From the sequence record CP053388.1: 64,000 nucleotides of DNA. One strand, 5' to 3'. Positions within the stretch are counted from its first letter, which is position 1. Each line of letters begins with the position of its first letter. Positions 41,493 to 63,980 of this stretch are shown here, piece after piece. The stretch comes from Escherichia phage CMS-2020a. The notes below the pieces were generated by a model, which was not told the DNA's origin, ran no database searches, and saw nothing but the letters and a program-made list of their open reading frames with translations. A program made the position numbers and the translations under genes.

Positions 41493-43178
41493 TCATTTAA
41501 CGCGTTTGAAAACGTATACGCTGACTGTGATCCCTGTGTCTTCAAACTCGTTGGTAAACGACTTCCCTCTGGCATAAACGTAATTATCCATCGTCATCCA
41601 GTCCAGTATTGGCGCAGTGCCCGGCAATACTGCTACAAGACGCCCGCCGACTTTCAGATGCCCCAGCGCAGCCAGCGTGTGCTCTCTATGACGACCAAGC
41701 GAGTACGGCGGGTTCATAACGATTTTGTCGAACTGATAACCTACGTTGTCCTCAGACCACTTTATGAAGTCGCAGCAAATCGTGTTCGTATACCCTTTTC
41801 CGCGCAGGATATCAGCGAAGAGAGGTGCGATTTCTATGCAGGTAACATCTTCCAGATCGGCGTTGATATAGGCCAGAAGATCCCCACGTCCGGCTTGAGG
41901 CTCCAGCAGCTTCTCACCAGACTTCAATTCAGTGGCTCTGGCAACGTACTCAGCAATCAAGCGTGGGGTAGGGTAGAACTGGTGTGATTTTGTATCCGGT
42001 ATTAATCCGGTAGCCACAATCGTATTTAGCGTATGGCCGATCTCATACGGGAACTGCCAGTGTTTTTTCTCCTGCACGCCGCCAATGAAGCTCAGTGTGC
42101 GCTCAAGCTCTTCCACCTGCGACTTCTGGAGAGCTGAATCAGAGAAGTACCATACGCCTTTGTCTTTGCTCAATCGCCCGTCACGAAGCGCAGTGCGAAC
42201 CGGCACGGAGATCGTCTTCTGGATTAACCCGAACTGCTTTGGTGCCCGTGTTTTTGGCGCAGTTCGGCATGGCGCGGGGATTGCAGCAGGCATACTGTAA
42301 GCCAGCACCTCATTCAACTTCCAGGCCACGTCAGGATGTATTTCAAAGTGAACGTTGCCGTTCTTGAACATCTTCACGCGCATCAGATTTCCATCGACGT
42401 TCATCCAGTCACCGGTCTGGCAGTCGTTTGCTCGATACGCAGCTGATAGCACCTCAGCAGTGCGGTTGATGGTAATAAATTCTTTGTGCGCGAAGAAATG
42501 AAGCAAGACACGCAGATCGTCGATGTAGTCCTCTTTGCGATAGTTCACGCTAACGCTGTCCCGCCAGAAATCAGAAATGCAGTCAGCGATTATCAGACGC
42601 TCGCTGAAACCGTTTGTCTTATTTGTCTTGTGCGCAGGACTCAGCGCCTTAAACAAGCCATACACGCGCTCAGAGAGATATTTGTGCCTGTCATTCAGCA
42701 AATTAAGCATCGTGGGTATGACCGTTTCTGCTTTGAACTCCGGTACACCAACGAACTCTTTAACCTTCATCTGGTAGCCGGTTCTGTCAGTTTTGATGAC
42801 TTCCTGTTTGCCCTCTATAAACTGCTCGCGCCACTCATCTCGACGGGAAGCTGGCATGATCAGCAAAACGTTAGTCATGTCCGTGACCTTCCTCCAGTAC
42901 TCGGCCCAAATATTCTGTTTCACCCATTCCAGATCGACTTTATCCAACCAACCTCGATTTAAACGCGAGCGATCTTCATCTGGTCGATGGTTTAGTCTCA
43001 GCAGGCGATTAATCATGTTGTGGCGTTCGTCGCCATAAACGAAGTCGTGTACCTGATACATGAAGGCGATCTCTTTCTCGCACTCGGCCACAATTTCGTG
43101 GATGACGTTCATTTCCTGCCGATAGTCGATAGCAGTGTTTGAGTTGGCATCGTCGATGATGGAAAGGGCTGTATTCAT
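41493..43178 (-). CDS. Large protein with C-terminal N6-adenine (or N4-cytosine) methyltransferase domain
   Basis: FYPTPRLIAEY, motif I-like LEPQAGRGDLL, then motif IV IVMNPPYS within the last about 180 aa; N-terminal about 380 aa of unknown function. Confidence 0.55.
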   Translation of the reverse strand: MNTALSIIDDANSNTAIDYRQEMNVIHEIVAECEKEIAFMYQVHDFVYGDERHNMINRLLRLNHRPDEDRSRLNRGWLDKVDLEWVKQNIWAEYWRKVTDMTNVLLIMPASRRDEWREQFIEGKQEVIKTDRTGYQMKVKEFVGVPEFKAETVIPTMLNLLNDRHKYLSERVYGLFKALSPAHKTNKTNGFSERLIIADCISDFWRDSVSVNYRKEDYIDDLRVLLHFFAHKEFITINRTAEVLSAAYRANDCQTGDWMNVDGNLMRVKMFKNGNVHFEIHPDVAWKLNEVLAYSMPAAIPAPCRTAPKTRAPKQFGLIQKTISVPVRTALRDGRLSKDKGVWYFSDSALQKSQVEELERTLSFIGGVQEKKHWQFPYEIGHTLNTIVATGLIPDTKSHQFYPTPRLIAEYVARATELKSGEKLLEPQAGRGDLLAYINADLEDVTCIEIAPLFADILRGKGYTNTICCDFIKWSEDNVGYQFDKIVMNPPYSLGRHREHTLAALGHLKVGGRLVAVLPGTAPILDWMTMDNYVYARGKSFTNEFEDTGITVSVYVFKRVK

Positions 43179-43281
43179 AATTGCACCATTAAGAAGTGAT
43201 TTGTTTAATGGTGCAATTATTTCAAAAATGAAAAGGTACTAAATAGAAATAAACAGGCAATCGTTCAAATAAAGGCATTGG

Positions 43282-43953
43282 CTAATCATACTTGGAGGTA
43301 TTTATCACCAGAATTTTGTTTGTATAAATCTTCTTAATATCCCATGTGACATTACCGGAATACCATTGACCGTTATATACTTGGTTTCCAGTTGCACCTG
43401 TCATTGTTACATAGACAGGTCTGTCGTAATCGGTTCGTCTATAGTTATATACCCCAACCATAGCAGGCATTACCGCACATGGATACCCCATATCTATTGT
43501 AAATTGAGGGTCAGAAATAGTGATAAGTTTCGCATCAAGGGGCATCATCTCACCGTGATACACCATTGCGCCTGCGCTGTTATACATGGCAATGCCATAG
43601 CCAGAATGTGGTAACACCATATCAGAAAAAGCATAAACTGTTATTGTTCCGGGGCTACCATTTACCTGATGCAATCTGAGAGCATTGTATCCGTTACTAT
43701 GCTCATGAATAAACATCATGTTCGCCTTATTACTGCTTTTTATGAAGAAAAAGCATGATTTGTTTGATGGGATTGATGTTTGAAAAACAGAACCTTTAGA
43801 TGTAGACATTGTCCCTTTATTAATCAGATTTTGCGGAGTAAATTCTGGACTCATCCACAAACTTCCATCTGATTGAGTAATTGACATCCCGAACATAATT
43901 ATCCCCAGTATGTGTATATGTAAGAACCAAGCCCCGTATATAAATTTGACCAA
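43282..43953 (-). CDS. Beta-rich N/Y/G/T-rich protein, AT-rich gene (possible C-terminal part of a split gene)
   Basis: 223 aa ORF overlapping the 3' end of ORF 43899-44180 in another frame; AT-rich DNA. Confidence 0.4.
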   Translation of the reverse strand: MVKFIYGAWFLHIHILGIIMFGMSITQSDGSLWMSPEFTPQNLINKGTMSTSKGSVFQTSIPSNKSCFFFIKSSNKANMMFIHEHSNGYNALRLHQVNGSPGTITVYAFSDMVLPHSGYGIAMYNSAGAMVYHGEMMPLDAKLITISDPQFTIDMGYPCAVMPAMVGVYNYRRTDYDRPVYVTMTGATGNQVYNGQWYSGNVTWDIKKIYTNKILVINTSKYD

Positions 43954-44180
43954 CTAACCGTATTTCCATTAATAGTAACTGTTGGAACAGGTAAATTAAT
44001 GTAGTTGTCGTTGTTAAGAGGCATCAATGACCACACGGCATGTAGCGATTTACCCGGTGGCGGATTGGAGTACGTCTTAGAGCCTGATGACGCAGTAAAT
44101 CGATCAAGAAAAAAAATAGGAGTAAGGAAGCCAGTAACGTTAATTCCTTTATTGTTGTAAATCCCTGTACCGTATGACAT
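43899..44180 (-). CDS. N/Y/G/T-rich protein, possible N-terminal part of a split or frameshifted gene
   Basis: 93 aa ORF of similar composition overlapping the next ORF. Confidence 0.35.
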   Translation of the reverse strand: MSYGTGIYNNKGINVTGFLTPIFFLDRFTASSGSKTYSNPPPGKSLHAVWSLMPLNNDNYINLPVPTVTINGNTVSWSNLYTGLGSYIYTYWG

Positions 44181-44234
44181 TTTTCACCCTTGTTTTTATC
44201 AACACAATATGGCCGATCATGCGGCCATATCAGA

Positions 44235-44804
44235 TCAATTAGAGCTTTGAAAGACTTTGTGTGGTTGTGTTGCGAGGTTATGTCGATGGCTTAACTCACG
44301 CATCATGTCTTCAAGCCGACTCTTTGTGTCGTCGAGTTGGTCGGCCATTGCTCCCAAAAGCTGACGAACGGCCATCGGATCATCGCTGTTTAGTGATGGC
44401 ATTTTATAACCCGCCTGAGAAGACATAAGATTGAACGCAGACATCAACATCGTTAGAGAGGATTTAAGCCCAGCAATTTCACGATCTTTGCTGGCAATAA
44501 TCGCCTCACTCTTGTTAGTGTCATCAGTTCGTTGAGTCTCGCTCACCATATCCAAAGTCGCCTGCAACTTATCAGCGCGCTCTTTTTCAGCAAGATAATG
44601 AACACCGAAATGATGTGCTAAAGCTACAACCTGAGTTGGCTCTTCAAAGGTGGACTCAAAATTAAGTGCTGTAACCACTCTCTCAAATATGGAAACGTCT
44701 TCTATTCCTCGAAGAATGGCTAACATTTTGACCAGTTCATTAGCATCCATTTCTTCGAATAAGGCGTTTTGTTCATCAGCTATCGCTTTGCATTTCTTGC
44801 ACAT
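44235..44804 (-). CDS. Hypothetical protein
   Basis: 189 aa; motif A at 44823-44837 upstream. Confidence 0.5.
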   Translation of the reverse strand: MCKKCKAIADEQNALFEEMDANELVKMLAILRGIEDVSIFERVVTALNFESTFEEPTQVVALAHHFGVHYLAEKERADKLQATLDMVSETQRTDDTNKSEAIIASKDREIAGLKSSLTMLMSAFNLMSSQAGYKMPSLNSDDPMAVRQLLGAMADQLDDTKSRLEDMMRELSHRHNLATQPHKVFQSSN

Positions 44805-44943
44805 GTGTTTTTCCTAATGCTTAAACAAGTTGTTTTCTTATTGGCTTTATTGTGATGTGGCATAAAAGGGGAGCAAGCTAAACGTAAAGGTGCAAACTCT
44901 CTATTTCGGTCAACGAAACACAAGGGCCATTTGGCCCTTGTCA

Positions 44944-45102
44944 TTAACACGTTGCTTTACGGACTAGCGGATAAGCGAAGTAGATCGCCAGACCAATGAG
45001 GACGCCATCAGAAATGACAGACATCATCTTTCCCGTAAAATCCACCAACACCGCCATCACCAGAAGAGCAATGACGATCACAAGCCGGAATCTCTCAAGC
45101 AT
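44944..45102 (-). CDS. Small hydrophobic membrane protein (52 aa)
   Basis: MLERFRLVIVIALLVMAVLVDF...; ATG overlaps the stop of the upstream gene; below the track cutoff. Confidence 0.35.
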   Translation of the reverse strand: MLERFRLVIVIALLVMAVLVDFTGKMMSVISDGVLIGLAIYFAYPLVRKATC

Positions 45103-45527
45103 TAGAGATAAGCATCCAGTGACAACTGAAGCGCCTGGGCGATCTTTTTCAGTGCCTGCTCTTCTTGTTCACCAATGCCGTCCTGATCGGCAATATCAAG
45201 GCACAGACACAGAACATCGACCGCCTCTGGAGTACCCGCAATATCAGACAGCTCACGAATAGCCTGTGCATTAGCAGAACGAGGGGACGCTTCGTAACGA
45301 GCACGGATATTGGCGCTCATTTGGGCAATTTCACCAGCAAACGGAGAAAACGCAGGCAGAGCTGCAATTGTCTTCTCAAGAATGGCAATTTCTTTTGCGT
45401 CACATGTGCCGTCGGCATAGGAGATCATGTACGCGCCCCACACGGTGGCCTCAACCGCATCACGGTTCTCCATTTTTTTGACTTCGATAACAGCTTTACG
45501 AGTTTTCTTTTTGAAGAAACCTAACAT
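45102..45527 (-). CDS. TerB-like protein (tentative)
   Basis: 141 aa with composition reminiscent of the tellurite-resistance TerB fold; motif A at 45551-45566 upstream. Weak. Confidence 0.35.
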   Translation of the reverse strand: MLGFFKKKTRKAVIEVKKMENRDAVEATVWGAYMISYADGTCDAKEIAILEKTIAALPAFSPFAGEIAQMSANIRARYEASPRSANAQAIRELSDIAGTPEAVDVLCLCLDIADQDGIGEQEEQALKKIAQALQLSLDAYL

Positions 45528-45620
45528 GTGCTTTCCTTTTATTATTTGTCAAAACAAGTTGTTTTCTAATTACATAAATTGCTTACGCAGAGATGGTCAA
45601 TGCATATGCACTAACAGCCG

Positions 45621-45809
45621 TCAGAAATAACCAAGTACCGAACCAACTGGAAAAACAAAAATCCCAACAACACGAGCCAAGGTCATACCAGCCTGAAACT
45701 GGAGATCGCCAGAGCAAACAAGTTTTATAATGTTCGATACCCAACCGGCGGCCATGAGGGCAAGAATTGCCAGCCAAATTTTTCCAAAGTGATTTGAAAA
45801 CCAGTTCAT
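45621..45809 (-). CDS. Small membrane protein (holin-like, tentative)
   Basis: 62 aa with two hydrophobic segments (IWLAILALMAAGWV, VVGIFVFPVGSVLGYF). Confidence 0.4.
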   Translation of the reverse strand: MNWFSNHFGKIWLAILALMAAGWVSNIIKLVCSGDLQFQAGMTLARVVGIFVFPVGSVLGYF

Positions 45810-45818
45810 ACAACCGCC

Positions 45819-46313
45819 TTAGTCACAGCATGATCCTGAGTAACTGGATGAACTTGAGGTATCGCATCCACCGTCATCCCATCCAGAGTGACAGGACGCT
45901 CTACTGGAGTGGTGGTAATTGTCGTCGACGAAGGTGTGGTGGTGGATGAATCCGGCATCAAAAGGCTCTGACCGGCTGGAACGGCTACCGTCGCCAGTGA
46001 AACTATAATGAGAACGTAGGCCATTGGTTTCAGCCTCTTTCTTTGAAAATTTTCCATTCGAACTGTCCTTGTTGTTTTTCTCCTTCACTAAAGGCCGTGC
46101 ATTTTTCGCTTCGCGTGAAGAACCAGAGGCAACAATCGCCCCCACGTTCGCAACAACTGACGCTTGATTATCTAAACGTTCATTCAGCAACCGAACGGTA
46201 GTCTCTAGTTCTTCAAGGCGTGACATAACACGACCGCTAAATAATTCGGCCAAAATTTGACGTAAAGAACGAGGGCGTTTAGTTACAGAAGTGAAATAGG
46301 TTTGACGTGCCAT
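45819..46313 (-). CDS. Hypothetical protein (reading frame uncertain)
   Basis: 164 aa ORF whose C-terminal low-complexity tail overlaps an 83-aa ORF (45806-46057) with an N-terminal hydrophobic anchor in another frame. Confidence 0.35.
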   Translation of the reverse strand: MARQTYFTSVTKRPRSLRQILAELFSGRVMSRLEELETTVRLLNERLDNQASVVANVGAIVASGSSREAKNARPLVKEKNNKDSSNGKFSKKEAETNGLRSHYSFTGDGSRSSRSEPFDAGFIHHHTFVDDNYHHSSRASCHSGWDDGGCDTSSSSSYSGSCCD

Positions 46314-46461
46314 GTGGACTCCATCCAGTGTCAGAAAGAGTTGCGGCTGGCGATTGCCAGCCGCCTTTCTCGTTCCATCCTGGAACTGTGTCTTACCGAC
46401 ACATTGTCATCCTGACGCCGATAAGATACATGATTTAAAATGATAGGTAAACACTTACTTA

Positions 46462-47052
46462 CTATTTATTATAAACAAAACCAATATCTTTCTTGTGAGG
46501 CATATCTGCTGCTGAAAAAGCTGCGATCTTCGCGAGTCGATCACATATTTCATTTTCACGATGCCCGGCGTGACCTTTAACCCACTTCCAGCGAACATTA
46601 TGTCGACTTGCGGCCTCATCCAGACGCTTCCACAGATCAACATTCTTTACCGGTTTTTTGTCAGAAGTCATCCATCCATTGCGTTTCCACCATTTCATCC
46701 ACTGTGTCATGCCGTTTTTCAGATACTGGCTATCAGAGTGCAAAATAACGTTGCATGGATATTTCAAACGCTCCAGCCCGATAAGTGCCCCCATCATCTC
46801 CATGCGGTTATTGGTGGTGCTATGAAAACCATCTGAGAACTCGCGTTCCTCTCCACGATACTGAAGAACGATACCGTAACCGCCCGGGCCACCCGGATTT
46901 TTAAGGCAAGAGCCATCACTGAAGATTTTCACGGTTTTAAGCTGGGGATTGAACTCTACGACAGGCGTTGTGGGATTGGTGCGGGGAGAATTTTTGTTTT
47001 TGGCTTTTTTGCGAGTTTTCGCTTGCGATCGGGCTGGTGTCTTCGTCGTCAT
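46462..47052 (-). CDS. rnhA: Ribonuclease HI (start adjusted to MTTKTPARS)
   Basis: Strong match to E. coli RnhA ([75 protein letters not shown]) with a basic N-terminal extension. Confidence 0.9.
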
Positions 47053-47136
47053 ATAAACTCCTGAATCAAGCGCCGCGCCGATTTTTCCTCGCGCGTGCGC
47101 ACACGCGTGCGTGTTAATAATTATTAAAATAAACAA

Positions 47137-47635
47137 ATTACTTCCCAGAACAGGTTTTTATAAACCTGAACTGAACGAACGAAGTGAGTGAAGTTCACCT
47201 CGAACGAAGTGAGAGGTTGTCTTTTCAGGTAATACTCTCCCAGGGAGGTGAGTATAAAAATCTCTCACCAACCTGGTCGTTTCATAACCTGAAAAGTTAT
47301 GGTCTAAGTCTACTGCCAGCTTAGACTTGGGAAGTTATGGATGACAGCACCCCAGAACCGAGATCTTCCCACACTTTATGAAGGGGAGTACTGGATTCAA
47401 CCTCTCGAAACACCCCAGACTCGACAATCATAAAGTGACCCTTGTCTCTGCTCACTTTGGTTCCCCCTTCCCCGACACCTAAACGGCACCAGTTCTACGC
47501 TGGTAGTGAGCTTTTTTTAAACCTGACGCCAGTGACGCTTACCCCCACCCATCAGGTCGAGTCTCCAGTCTACGACTGGAAACTATCAGATCTTAGCACT
47601 TACAATTCACTTTATGAATAGTTTGTACTTATCTA
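47137..47635. other. About 500-bp non-coding region with several stem-loops and short direct repeats
   Basis: Direct repeat cgaacgaagtgag (x2), hairpin caggtttttataaacctg, long-range inverted repeat cttttcaggt...acctgaaaag; no ORF of 60 aa or more with an RBS. Confidence 0.4.
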
Positions 47636-47866
47636 TCATTGTGATTGATTATTTTCTCTACCATGTAGTTGAACATTCAAGGCAAACACCTCATTGATCA
47701 ACTCACCTAAAAGCTGTTCAACAAGTTCGCGATGCTCGCCAAGATGCAAGCACTTAATTGCCCATTCGTACAAGTTGAAAGCCTGCTCACGATCTTTCAT
47801 CATTTCACGAGCCTGGGCCAGAAAATCGCTCTCTACGAGCGCAACGACATTAGTCGGGTATGACAT
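47636..47866 (-). CDS. Hypothetical protein (start adjusted to MSYPTNVV)
   Basis: RBS AAGGAAA before ATG at 47866. Confidence 0.45.
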   Translation of the reverse strand: MSYPTNVVALVESDFLAQAREMMKDREQAFNLYEWAIKCLHLGEHRELVEQLLGELINEVFALNVQLHGRENNQSQ

Positions 47867-47952
47867 GTTGGTTTCCTTAAAGTGGTTCATAAAATCGATT
47901 TTAAAGCGTCTGGGAAGGGGTTCTAGTGGATTCTGTAGTGATGTTCAGGTCT

Positions 47953-48020
47953 GGAGTCTCTGATACAAAGCTGCCTGCTTCCGTATATTAATAATTAATA
48001 TGTAGTTATTTATATATACA
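47953..48020. promoter_or_regulatory. Imperfect palindrome, copy 2
   Basis: gcctgcttccgtatatt...atatatacagaagcaggc; near-identical arms to the 17868-17922 copy. Confidence 0.5.
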
Positions 48021-48051
48021 GAAGCAGGCTAATTACAGACGCCAGAACAAA

Positions 48052-48645
48052 CTAAGCAGCCTTCTTTGATGGTCTTTTTTTCCTGATCACATTCGCAGGA
48101 TCATACCCTCCCAGACTTTTCATGACGTCCAAAGGGATCTTGCTTATAGAGTGCCCAGCGTCCTGACAGAATCCTCGAAAAACAACGAGCATACTGCCAC
48201 CTGGGTTGATGTTTACTTCTACCTGACCCAGATTTACGTCAGGCTCGACAAACGCTACGCGGCCACCAGACAGAATAATCGTCTCATTCGCACACTCTGT
48301 TGCACGCTCATACCACTTTGTATCTAGGGATTGAGGAATTAGCATCACTGTTGTAACTCCACGAGCCTGCTCACGTATAGCCGCATCAATCCAGGGGGAG
48401 ATTTTGGAGTAGGGTGGATTGAGGAAGGCAATTGTACCTGGCTGTCCCCATTCAGATTTCAAAGCATCACGCTCAACGCCTATGAAATTAGGCAGCTTTG
48501 CATTGTCCTTGTTGCAGGCAACGTCAACATCAAATGTCACTCCAAGATAACGTTGAATGGCAGAAAACAGCCAGTCAGGTGTTCTCCAGAGGTCACGAAG
48601 AGAGTTGTCGCGCTTTCGCTGTTTGATTTTTTCGGCTGCAATCAT
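48052..48645 (-). CDS. dam: Phage-type DNA N6-adenine methyltransferase
   Basis: WRTPDWLF and FLNPPYS motifs in a 197-aa protein typical of small phage Dam-family enzymes; motif B at 48655-48677 upstream. Target sequence not determinable. Confidence 0.8.
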   Translation of the reverse strand: MIAAEKIKQRKRDNSLRDLWRTPDWLFSAIQRYLGVTFDVDVACNKDNAKLPNFIGVERDALKSEWGQPGTIAFLNPPYSKISPWIDAAIREQARGVTTVMLIPQSLDTKWYERATECANETIILSGGRVAFVEPDVNLGQVEVNINPGGSMLVVFRGFCQDAGHSISKIPLDVMKSLGGYDPANVIRKKRPSKKAA

Positions 48646-48708
48646 CTTCTTTCTCGATAGGTAAGTATATACCTATTTTTGCATTTGATTTTATGTCTGG
48701 CAATCAAA

Positions 48709-48757
48709 TAAAACGCGCCAGAAATGCAAACGAGAAGCTCTCTGGCGCGTTTTTGTG
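48709..48757. terminator. Hairpin terminator (bidirectional)
   Basis: aaacgcgccagaa...ctctggcgcgttttt. Confidence 0.5.
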
Positions 48758-48828
48758 GTGCTGGGTATGTGATTGGCTTACCCAGTACTATAAAGCTCTC
48801 TATGGGCTTTATTTTAAGTAGGGGAACG

Positions 48829-49638
48829 TCATCCAATAGTGTACTCCGCGACAAACTTCTTAACGATCGGTGATTCTTCGTTCAATGTTAGATTTCCACC
48901 GTCTCTAACGGCAATTCCTGTCGCTGGAAATACAGCCATCATTTGCCCAGCCTGAGTTGACGCAGTATTAAGCGGATACGGTTTTTCTGGATTGCTCATT
49001 AAAGCAATCTTAATACTATTACTTGTAGCCTTCTTTTCTGTGAGAAGGTGTCTCATGGAAATTACCGTGTAAACACTAATATCTGGACCTCCGCTAAACC
49101 AATTAAGAAGGTTTAATATCTTATCCTTTGCTTTGACAGGCGCGTTATCGTAAGCGTCTAAGAAAATATCTTTTTCTAAGCCCGCTTTATTGAAAAACGA
49201 ATCATCTTTATCACTTAAAGTAAAACGAGGACCTCTTGCAGTACGCGCTTTTTTATTTGTATTGCTATCATTTGACTGTTGAACTTTTAATTCATCATTA
49301 ACCTCAACACACTCTTCAACCTCAATAAATCCCAATTGTTCTGGCTCGTTTTCGGCAGCTTCAACACTTTCAGCGTTAATTACGTTTATAGGCTCATGCG
49401 CTAACTCCAACTCATTTAAAGCAGAGCTGAAATCACCTGCTTTTTCTTCATTGAACAGTTCTTCGGCAACATCATCAGAACTCATGGCTACGCCAGCATC
49501 TAGGCCGAGCAGCAGATCGTCAATATCATCAGTATTTTCAACCTGTGCAGCTTTTTTTACTGGTTCATCAAGTGATTGCAACATGGCTGTCAGCTCGTCC
49601 AGATCAGCATTTGTCATTACATTTTCAACCGAACTCAT
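48829..49638 (-). CDS. Acidic hypothetical protein
   Basis: 269 aa, very acidic N-terminal 120 aa. Confidence 0.5.
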   Translation of the reverse strand: MSSVENVMTNADLDELTAMLQSLDEPVKKAAQVENTDDIDDLLLGLDAGVAMSSDDVAEELFNEEKAGDFSSALNELELAHEPINVINAESVEAAENEPEQLGFIEVEECVEVNDELKVQQSNDSNTNKKARTARGPRFTLSDKDDSFFNKAGLEKDIFLDAYDNAPVKAKDKILNLLNWFSGGPDISVYTVISMRHLLTEKKATSNSIKIALMSNPEKPYPLNTASTQAGQMMAVFPATGIAVRDGGNLTLNEESPIVKKFVAEYTIG

Positions 49639-49796
49639 GTAAGTCTCCTTCTGTTTGGTTACATTTGCGTTTCGATGGCTGCATTTTGACTAAACCTATC
49701 AGGCGGAAAAGTATTAAATACAGGCAGGAAATGATTGAAAGGCGACTGTTCTTTAAAAAAAAGCCTACTTTAAACTTTTTAAAGTAGGCTTTTGTT

Positions 49797-50354
49797 TTAC
49801 ACAATTTCAGAGGGTAATTTAAAAAATCCGTACTTATTACGTGCCTTAAAGAAGCATTGCATCATTAAGTTTGTGTCATATAAGGCACTATGTGCTTTGG
49901 CATGATCGTATATAAAGCCAAGAGAGAAGGCCAACTCTTCAAGGCGGGGACGTTTACCGTCTTCTGTGGCCCACAATCCCGATAACATAGTATCTATAAC
50001 AGGAACTTCTGGCAGTCTTACTCCATACCCTGAAAACTCGTGTCGAATAAATGGTATATCAAATGCTTCGCCGTTATGAGCAACCCACACACTACATGCC
50101 CCCATATAAGCGCCAATTTCGCTGGCATGATTTGACAACAAAGGTTCAGCTGCGAGCTGTTCCAATGAAATGCCATGAACGGCTTGAGCTTTCGGATCTA
50201 TGTTTCTGCGAGGGTTAAAACGCATCTCCAGACTATCAATATGTCTCTGTGTCTCCAGTTCATAGCGGGTAATTGCGATTTCAATAATTTTATGACCAGC
50301 AAGGAAATCCAGTCCCGTAGACTCGATATCGATGCCTGCAACAATCGTTGTCAT
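49797..50354 (-). CDS. DnaQ-like 3'-5' exonuclease (DEDDh family)
   Basis: Exo I GIDIESTGL, Exo II HNGEAFDIPF, Exo III HSALYDTN. Confidence 0.85.
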   Translation of the reverse strand: MTTIVAGIDIESTGLDFLAGHKIIEIAITRYELETQRHIDSLEMRFNPRRNIDPKAQAVHGISLEQLAAEPLLSNHASEIGAYMGACSVWVAHNGEAFDIPFIRHEFSGYGVRLPEVPVIDTMLSGLWATEDGKRPRLEELAFSLGFIYDHAKAHSALYDTNLMMQCFFKARNKYGFFKLPSEIV

Positions 50355-63765: not shown

Positions 63766-63774
63766 ATATCCACA
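63766..63774. promoter_or_regulatory. DnaA box-like site
   Basis: ATATCCACA, 8 of 9 match to TTATCCACA, directly before the GATC cluster. Confidence 0.45.
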
Positions 63775-63779
63775 GGATA

Positions 63780-63838
63780 GATCCTAATAAAGAGATCCAT
63801 AGATAGATCCTTATATAGATCAAATAAGATCCCCGATC
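63780..63838. repeat. GATC cluster (six Dam sites in 59 bp) in AGATCC-type short repeats
   Basis: GATC at 63780, 63794, 63806, 63818, 63828, 63835. Confidence 0.7.
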
Positions 63839-63880
63839 GCTGTAAGCCGCGCCACGACTGGTCTAAAGTCATGTTCATGT

Positions 63881-63980
63881 ATGCTGTCAGCGGTAATTGA
63901 TAGTCTGTCAGCGGTTCACCGTATGCTGCCAACTGTTTTTGGTATTCTGTCAGCGGCAAATCAAGTATGCTGTCAGCGGT
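63881..63980. repeat. Iteron array, type 2 (TGTCAGCGG core)
   Basis: atgctgtcagcggt (63881), gtctgtcagcggt (63904), degenerate gtatgctgccaac (63921), ttctgtcagcggc (63946), atgctgtcagcggt (63967); 21-22 bp spacing; array may continue past the window end. Confidence 0.65.

Follow-up and report, generated by a model that had tools for sequence, protein, structure and literature searches.

Two probable orphan DNA adenine methyltransferases of different families, one with a conserved DUF4942 module, in an SSU5/pHCM2-type phage-plasmid of Escherichia coli

Why should a single mobile element keep two adenine methyltransferases, and what might the long N-terminal module of the larger one contribute? 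The question is raised by a stretch of 64,000 nucleotides from Escherichia phage CMS-2020a (record CP053388.1; hereafter the window), in which a first-pass annotation made from the letters alone had placed a 561-residue protein and a 197-residue protein as two unrelated N6-adenine methyltransferases. Both open reading frames are present on the minus strand exactly as that annotation had claimed (Table 1), and it is highly probable that both encode orphan DNA adenine methyltransferases. The explanation proposed here, which we hold to be probable though far from assured, is that the pair pre-methylates the DNA of the element against restriction and that the smaller enzyme also methylates the repeats of its origin. 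Self-protective DNA methylation would be the best-supported role for both enzymes.

The identity of the large protein is carried by its C-terminal domain, for which motif I followed by NPPY had been predicted. FYPTP (residues 401-405), LEPQAGRGD (425-433), a CIEI strand, CDF and NPPY (489-492) follow one another in that order, in alignment with the M.TaqI motifs from X to IV; FYPTP, LEPQAGRGD and NPPY are near-invariant across the family. The prediction is borne out by the model as well, in which a class-I S-adenosylmethionine (SAM)-dependent, Rossmann-like fold closes the chain: the protein stops two residues past the last modelled beta strand (E551-559 of 561), and the extra 395 residues are N-terminal. 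Because the chain ends with the Rossmann fold, the protein is without a C-terminal specificity domain. In profile searches it matches phrog_6263, “DNA methyltransferase”, from end to end (E 7e-300), and among the PADLOC models it matches mad2 (E 5e-15, limited to the catalytic domain) and Type II methyltransferase models (MTase_II, down to E 2.8e-10). The first of these, mad2, is the MADS methyltransferase, whose deletion abolishes N6-methyladenine (m6A) in DNA (bioRxiv 10.1101/2023.03.30.534895). The Pfam model N6_Mtase (PF02384) scored 13.7 bits on the large protein, below its cut-off of 20.4, and matched 20 of 24 relatives at sub-threshold to weak levels (best E 7.9e-6). The profile searches favour a DNA methyltransferase. 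DNA adenine methyltransferases are also among the structures on which the modelled catalytic domain superposes, and identity is highest, at 25%, for TaqI and CamA.

The small protein had been assigned to the phage Dam family, and this assignment is sustained by two models with curated cut-offs, Pfam Dam PF05869 (E 2.5e-38; 131.8 bits, cut-off 28.1) and the NCBIfam equivalog TIGR01712, phage_N6A_met (113.9, cut-off 97.05), and by the presence of NPPY. It also matches phrog_111, and the Dam genes of T1-like phages match it at about 30%. A closer relative is orf32 of VT2-Sakai, the PF05869 member of that phage's nin region (39% identity, E 2e-31), which is probably M.EcoVT2Dam. M.EcoVT2Dam of VT2-Sa has been reported to target GATC (PMC6602927). 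Given this report and the identity to orf32, GATC is the most parsimonious target of the small enzyme, which most likely methylates that site, although 39% identity falls short of proof.

As a pair, the two proteins show no significant similarity; the BLASTP alignment between them (E 0.37) is confined to the surroundings of NPPY. Since nothing significant is common to them beyond that tetrapeptide, the amino-methyltransferase motif IV, “two unrelated” is a fair label at the level of families, and it is at this level that the claim of two unrelated N6-adenine methyltransferases stands: the two belong to different families, yet both fall within the class-I SAM-dependent superfamily.

The element that carries them is a familiar one. 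Across about 10 kb around both genes, nucleotide identity is 98.2% to Escherichia phage Cyrano, 95.9% to PhiR41_1 and 95.8% to CMS-2020a, 83% to Salmonella phage SSU5 (51% coverage) and up to 99.3% to E. coli plasmids of about 107-112 kb, mostly non-mobilizable, and from these identities to Cyrano, SSU5 and the plasmids the window is recognised as a known SSU5/pHCM2-type phage-plasmid of E. coli. Counterparts of the large protein are CYRAN_90 of Cyrano and SSU5_095 of SSU5, and E. coli plasmids encode proteins with 99-100% identity to it, named “DUF4942 domain-containing protein”. In related records the large gene bears either that name or “DNA methyltransferase” and the small gene is called “phage N-6-adenine-methyltransferase”; both are already annotated in Cyrano, SSU5 and hundreds of plasmid records, and because proteins 99-100% identical are in public databases under these names, the finding of the genes is already known. 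In Cyrano, SSU5 and Klebsiella pJN2-26 the relative positions of the two genes are unchanged. Clusters from Xenorhabdus and Providencia, with 45-49% identity to the large protein and 58-65% to the small one, occur in the match lists of both proteins with equally sized longest contigs of about 84-107 kb, which fits carriage of the two genes on the same elements. Judged by this synteny, both are conserved core genes of SSU5/pHCM2-type phage-plasmids and not morons. No nuclease or restriction-enzyme gene adjoining either one was found in the open reading frame list, in Pfam, PHROG and PADLOC searches or in the Cyrano annotation; the neighbours are an Ead/Ea22-like gene, a membrane “moron” and small genes of no known function, and by their immediate neighbours both methyltransferases are orphan, or stand-alone, enzymes.

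Most of the large protein lies ahead of its catalytic domain. The first-pass annotation had called this region uncharacterised, and in that no known function has been assigned to it the description holds; however, it already has a name, DUF4942 in Pfam, and sits within a very large family of full-length proteins. Pfam DUF4942 is matched by all 24 relatives, and on the N-terminal part it was the sole Pfam match even at E <= 10. A separate structure model of residues 1-395 is confident (predicted local distance difference test, pLDDT, 83; predicted template-modelling score, pTM, 0.72). The comparison with remote homologues that the annotation had proposed gave nothing significant for the module when the family profile was set against all PDB sequences, a BFVD search with the module returned just a few uncharacterised phage proteins, and in these searches no similarity to any solved target-recognition domain or other fold emerged.

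Conservation was measured in an alignment of 160 representatives, 150 from the exhaustive search described below and ten earlier homologues, with a median identity to the large protein of 32%. The mean top-residue frequency of the DUF4942 core (residues 146-300) is 0.56, against 0.57 for the catalytic core, while the flanks of the module (residues 1-122 and 301-395) are more variable, at 0.37-0.40. Near-invariant polar residues of the core are R164, S180, H183, T185, N186, D221, R223, D262, H277 and N289; in the model, H183, T185 and N186 lie in a flexible loop, and D262, E279 and H281 are on adjacent strands. It had been suggested that the N-terminal domain might carry specificity or a second activity. 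A core as conserved as that of the catalytic domain is not what a freely diverging specificity domain would show, and this argues against a simple variable specificity domain. The family could have a single, common way of recognising DNA, adjusted by the variable flanks, or DUF4942 may have some other function; either reading fits.

Partial matches to the module were seen as well. Three otherwise unrelated Klebsiella plasmids (OW969859.1, 126526-126705; NZ_CP132647.1, 104861-105040; CP063014.1, 63729-63857) match the large protein over its first 43-62 residues only, at 65-68% identity and under hypothetical or no annotation, and PHROGs 16000 and 25525 likewise span only its N-terminal 60-157 residues. 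They could represent remnants of genes or an N-terminal segment that moves on its own. A scan of IMG/VR with the N-terminal profile for other architectures returned 80 loci, all of them close relatives of the phage-plasmid.

The whole protein is by no means confined to these elements. An exhaustive profile search of 1.84 billion representatives (clusters at 50% identity) found about 720 clusters of the DUF4942-methyltransferase family below E 1e-30, and since the best 150 of these 720 all match end to end (494-701 residues), the architecture is fixed and widespread. Full-length homologues of about 30% identity occur on IncHI2 plasmids, adjoining a PF02086 Dam gene; others, of 33-38% identity, lie in the early or replication regions of lambdoid prophages (with cI, cro-like, O/P-like and Erf genes), adjoining other orphan methyltransferases of PF01555 and PF00145; and a further one, on a large contig, adjoins another Dam. 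Such distant relatives repeatedly share their element with one or two additional orphan methyltransferases of other families, so that sets of several such enzymes seem typical of the carriers of this family. Cluster names for ten distant representatives, all metagenomic, include one “phospholipid N-methyltransferase” and one “hypothetical protein”, and in the literature searched no member of the DUF4942 family has a published function.

A possible site of action for the small enzyme lies near the end of the window, where the annotation had pointed to a GATC cluster. The cluster is real: six sites fall within 59 bp, the densest such group in the window, where other 60-bp stretches have at most three, and uniform placement of the window's 292 GATC sites produced such a cluster in 0.26% of trials. 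It also lies within an origin-like region, in which a DnaA-box-like site, clustered GATC heptamers and iterons are arranged in the layout of the P1-oriR type, directly upstream of rep; in phage PhiR41_1 the rep gene (“DNA replication protein”) starts at the base directly after the window end (64000). Replication from P1 oriR and cleavage at pac depend on GATC methylation, and the likeness in layout makes methylation-sensitive control of the origin a reasonable idea.

Expression of the large enzyme may be held back at the level of its messenger RNA. The leader of its gene can fold into a hairpin (minimum free energy -21.1 kcal/mol, z -4.7) that contains a perfect 12-bp inverted repeat (43181-43192 and 43205-43216). 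Among 22 distinct leaders of related loci, 74% of cells were paired, as against 30-49% with a slid partner, and five pairs are altered on both sides, for example TTGCACC/GGTGCAA versus TTACACC/GGTGTAA. The support is moderate: one of the sequences compared had itself supplied the structure, and in the SSU5 and Klebsiella lineages the stem is weak or missing. These data suggest that the hairpin restrains translation of the large enzyme.

The explanation that we propose joins these elements. The small enzyme would methylate GATC, and in doing so would also maintain methylation of the GATC heptamers in the P1-oriR-like origin. The large enzyme would make m6A in DNA by means of a minimal catalytic domain of about 165 residues, and the 395-residue module around DUF4942 would most likely serve in DNA binding and target selection. 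By pre-methylating the DNA of the element, both enzymes would allow phage progeny, or an incoming plasmid, to escape restriction in new hosts, and sequestration of the ribosome-binding site in the hairpin would probably keep translation of the large enzyme low. Family membership, motifs, fold, synteny, the lack of adjoining nuclease genes and the layout of the origin are established; that the large enzyme acts on DNA, which sites either enzyme recognises, and that they serve against restriction and at the origin, we infer. The main contextual argument that the large enzyme has a DNA substrate and a protective role is the recurrence of DNA methyltransferase and anti-restriction genes beside its homologues. 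Several points weigh against this explanation. The Dam of an E. coli host would already methylate the GATC cluster, and for origin function the need for another GATC enzyme is not obvious; the window shows no avoidance of GATC, which is slightly enriched (292 sites, with 258 +/- 16 expected); a specificity domain would not usually be as conserved as the DUF4942 core, which equals the catalytic core, when many specificities are expected in the family; and literature searches on DUF4942, SSU5 and pHCM2 with methyltransferase returned no methylome or biochemical data for either enzyme.

Other explanations must be set beside this one. An account that partly overlaps with it would make both enzymes mainly epigenetic regulators of the element, governing origin firing, use of the packaging site or the lysis-lysogeny switch, as P1 Dam/Dmt does. 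The position of the GATC cluster, in AT-rich heptamers beside a DnaA-box-like site, iterons and a rep gene, would suit such regulators, as would the P1 precedent described above and the standing of both genes as conserved core rather than variable accessory genes. However, the Enterobacterales hosts possess a Dam by which GATC would be methylated in any case, a second clustered motif that might be the target of the large enzyme did not emerge, and distant homologues reside in other, unrelated prophages and plasmids whose replication systems differ, a hint that the function is not tied to a particular replicon. A mainly regulatory role is possible, if doubtful. That the large protein is an RNA methyltransferase (rRNA or tRNA m6A, or N2-methylguanine) or a HemK-like protein methyltransferase, and not a DNA methyltransferase, is very unlikely. 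Its top fold match is indeed the rRNA m6A enzyme METTL5, but identity to RNA enzymes is 14-20%, compared with 25% to TaqI and CamA; NCBIfam models of RNA enzymes score far below their cut-offs (15.7 versus 171), and the protein did not qualify for the METTL5 or KsgA/Erm families. The stronger profile matches are to the DNA methyltransferase models named above (mad2, MTase_II and the phrog DNA methyltransferase families), and in phage replication modules the neighbours of homologues are repeatedly other DNA methyltransferases.

It may also be asked whether the DUF4942 module serves target selection at all. It could instead have a second function of its own, whether as an enzymatic site or by bringing the methyltransferase to a host partner or a DNA structure, for instance single-stranded or replicating DNA, in which case the large protein would belong to a distinct, broad-specificity class of methyltransferases of mobile elements. 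We consider this quite unlikely, although the conservation of the core and its ten or so near-invariant polar residues agree with it, as does the lack of likeness to a solved target-recognition domain or other fold; the variable flanks could then hold whatever specificity exists. Other orphan methyltransferases of mobile elements are non-specific or act on single strands, for example M.EcoGIX (PMC7736820). In a bolder form, which we regard as unlikely, proteins joining DUF4942 to a methyltransferase would be a distinct and widespread class of methyltransferases of mobile elements, in which a conserved module replaces the variable specificity domain and either targets a DNA structure, single-stranded or replicating DNA, or a partner in the host, or adds a second catalytic activity, the outcome being broad, motif-poor protective methylation.

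The finding of the pair adds little, since temperate phages and plasmids commonly carry orphan methyltransferases. Residual interest attaches to the large, conserved DUF4942 module, which is without a solved structural relative and, in the literature searched, without a characterised member. SSU5-type phage-plasmids spread resistance genes among Enterobacterales, and, if the proposal is true, they would use the large enzyme to cross restriction barriers.

The surroundings of the two genes offer further observations. Both lie in a long block of same-strand (minus) DNA-metabolism genes, at 44944-50354 of the window and onward, and in the Cyrano counterpart of this block genes for dihydrofolate reductase (DHFR), ThyX and polynucleotide kinase follow just farther on. 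A scan for promoters and terminators over 41-50 kb found promoter-like sites no commoner than in shuffled sequence. Directly upstream of the large gene is a GATC-free stretch of 1,034 bp (43068-44102). The 78-80% identity of this segment to the unrelated E. coli phages JenP1, JenP2 and BRET, together with its absence from SSU5, suggests an insert gained by horizontal transfer.

Table 1. Positions of the two methyltransferase genes, their parts and other features in the window; the last row refers to loci of distant relatives
Feature	Position	Strand	Remarks
Large methyltransferase gene, 561 residues, DUF4942 + methyltransferase	41493..43178	-	Stop codon included; from the open reading frame list
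C-terminal class-I SAM methyltransferase domain, residues 396-561	41496..41993	-	Without C-terminal target-recognition domain
Motif IV NPPY of large protein	41703-41714	-	
Motif I EPQAGRGD of large protein	41880-41906	-	
Whole N-terminal module, residues 1-395	41994..43178	-	Helical N-terminus, DUF4942 alpha/beta core, two small alpha/beta sub-domains (residues ~320-390)
DUF4942 core, residues 140-295	42294..42761	-	Pfam PF13708, 74 bits, cut-off 25, E 1.7e-20
16-bp hairpin, mRNA leader of large methyltransferase gene	43177..43220	-	3' arm covers GGTG Shine-Dalgarno-like element and AU of start codon
Two genes in GATC-free stretch	43282-43953 and 43899-44180	-	Includes “membrane associated protein” moron, phrog_425
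TerB/TciA-like gene	45102-45527	-	DNA-metabolism block
RNase HI with N-terminal extension	46462-47136	-	DNA-metabolism block
Small methyltransferase gene, 197 residues, phage Dam family (PF05869)	48052..48645	-	From the open reading frame list; NPPY at 48409-48420 (residues 76-79)
DnaQ-like 3'-5' exonuclease	49797-50354	-	DNA-metabolism block
Origin-like region, continuing past window end	63766..63980		DnaA-box-like site, GATC repeats, iterons
DnaA-box-like ATATCCACA	63766-63774		
Six GATC in AGATCC-type heptamer repeats	63780-63838		AT-rich DNA
Iterons TATGCTGTCAGCGG, at least five	63879-63980		Spaced 21-23 bp
Loci of distant DUF4942 methyltransferases with extra orphan methyltransferases (PF01555, PF00145, PF02086)	L002 9749-10936; L004 4948-6207, 10221-12320; L007 3351-4163		

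Set against known systems, the large protein is a full member, end to end, of Pfam DUF4942 (PF13708) and PHROG 6263, from which nothing sets it apart; at least 150 representative clusters have its architecture of 520-560 residues. With the gamma-order N6-adenine DNA methyltransferases of the M.TaqI/CamA type it shares the fold, the X-I-IV motif order and NPPY; however, TaqI and CamA have a C-terminal target-recognition domain, whereas the large protein has instead the DUF4942 module ahead of its catalytic domain. A Type IIG/IIL fusion of the MmeI/Eco57I-like kind was ruled out, as no nuclease is detectable. Like the single-strand-specific plasmid methyltransferases M.EcoGIX and M.BceJIII, it is an orphan carried by mobile elements. 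Those plasmid enzymes show little or no expression, act against restriction when the element enters a cell, and are of the beta class, with DPPY (PMC7736820); by its gamma order, NPPY and DUF4942 module, the large protein was ruled out as a member of that family.

A further likeness is found in the leading region of IncF plasmids, where a 187-residue “class I SAM-dependent methyltransferase” with NPPF/NPPY, located between an antirestriction gene and ssb/psiB, has 33% identity (E 1e-15) to the catalytic domain of the large protein but is without the DUF4942 module. On an IncFIA/FIC plasmid (NZ_CP145670.1, locus L006, 4506-6477) a 453-residue DUF3560 protein is directly followed by this minimal 187-residue methyltransferase, and the two genes together may correspond to a targeting module joined to a methyltransferase; the DUF3560 protein was ruled out as a split equivalent of the N-terminal module itself (hhalign probability 0.4%). 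Among phage Dam enzymes the small protein is unremarkable: it is like M.EcoVT2Dam and other PF05869 (TIGR01712) proteins in its family scores and NPPY, with a basic C-terminal tail 20-30 residues longer. Finally, phage P1 oriR resembles the region at the window end in the order of its elements upstream of rep, with five to six GATC sites in AGATCC-type repeats, and P1's own methyltransferase, Dmt, is a fused enzyme, unlike the two described here.

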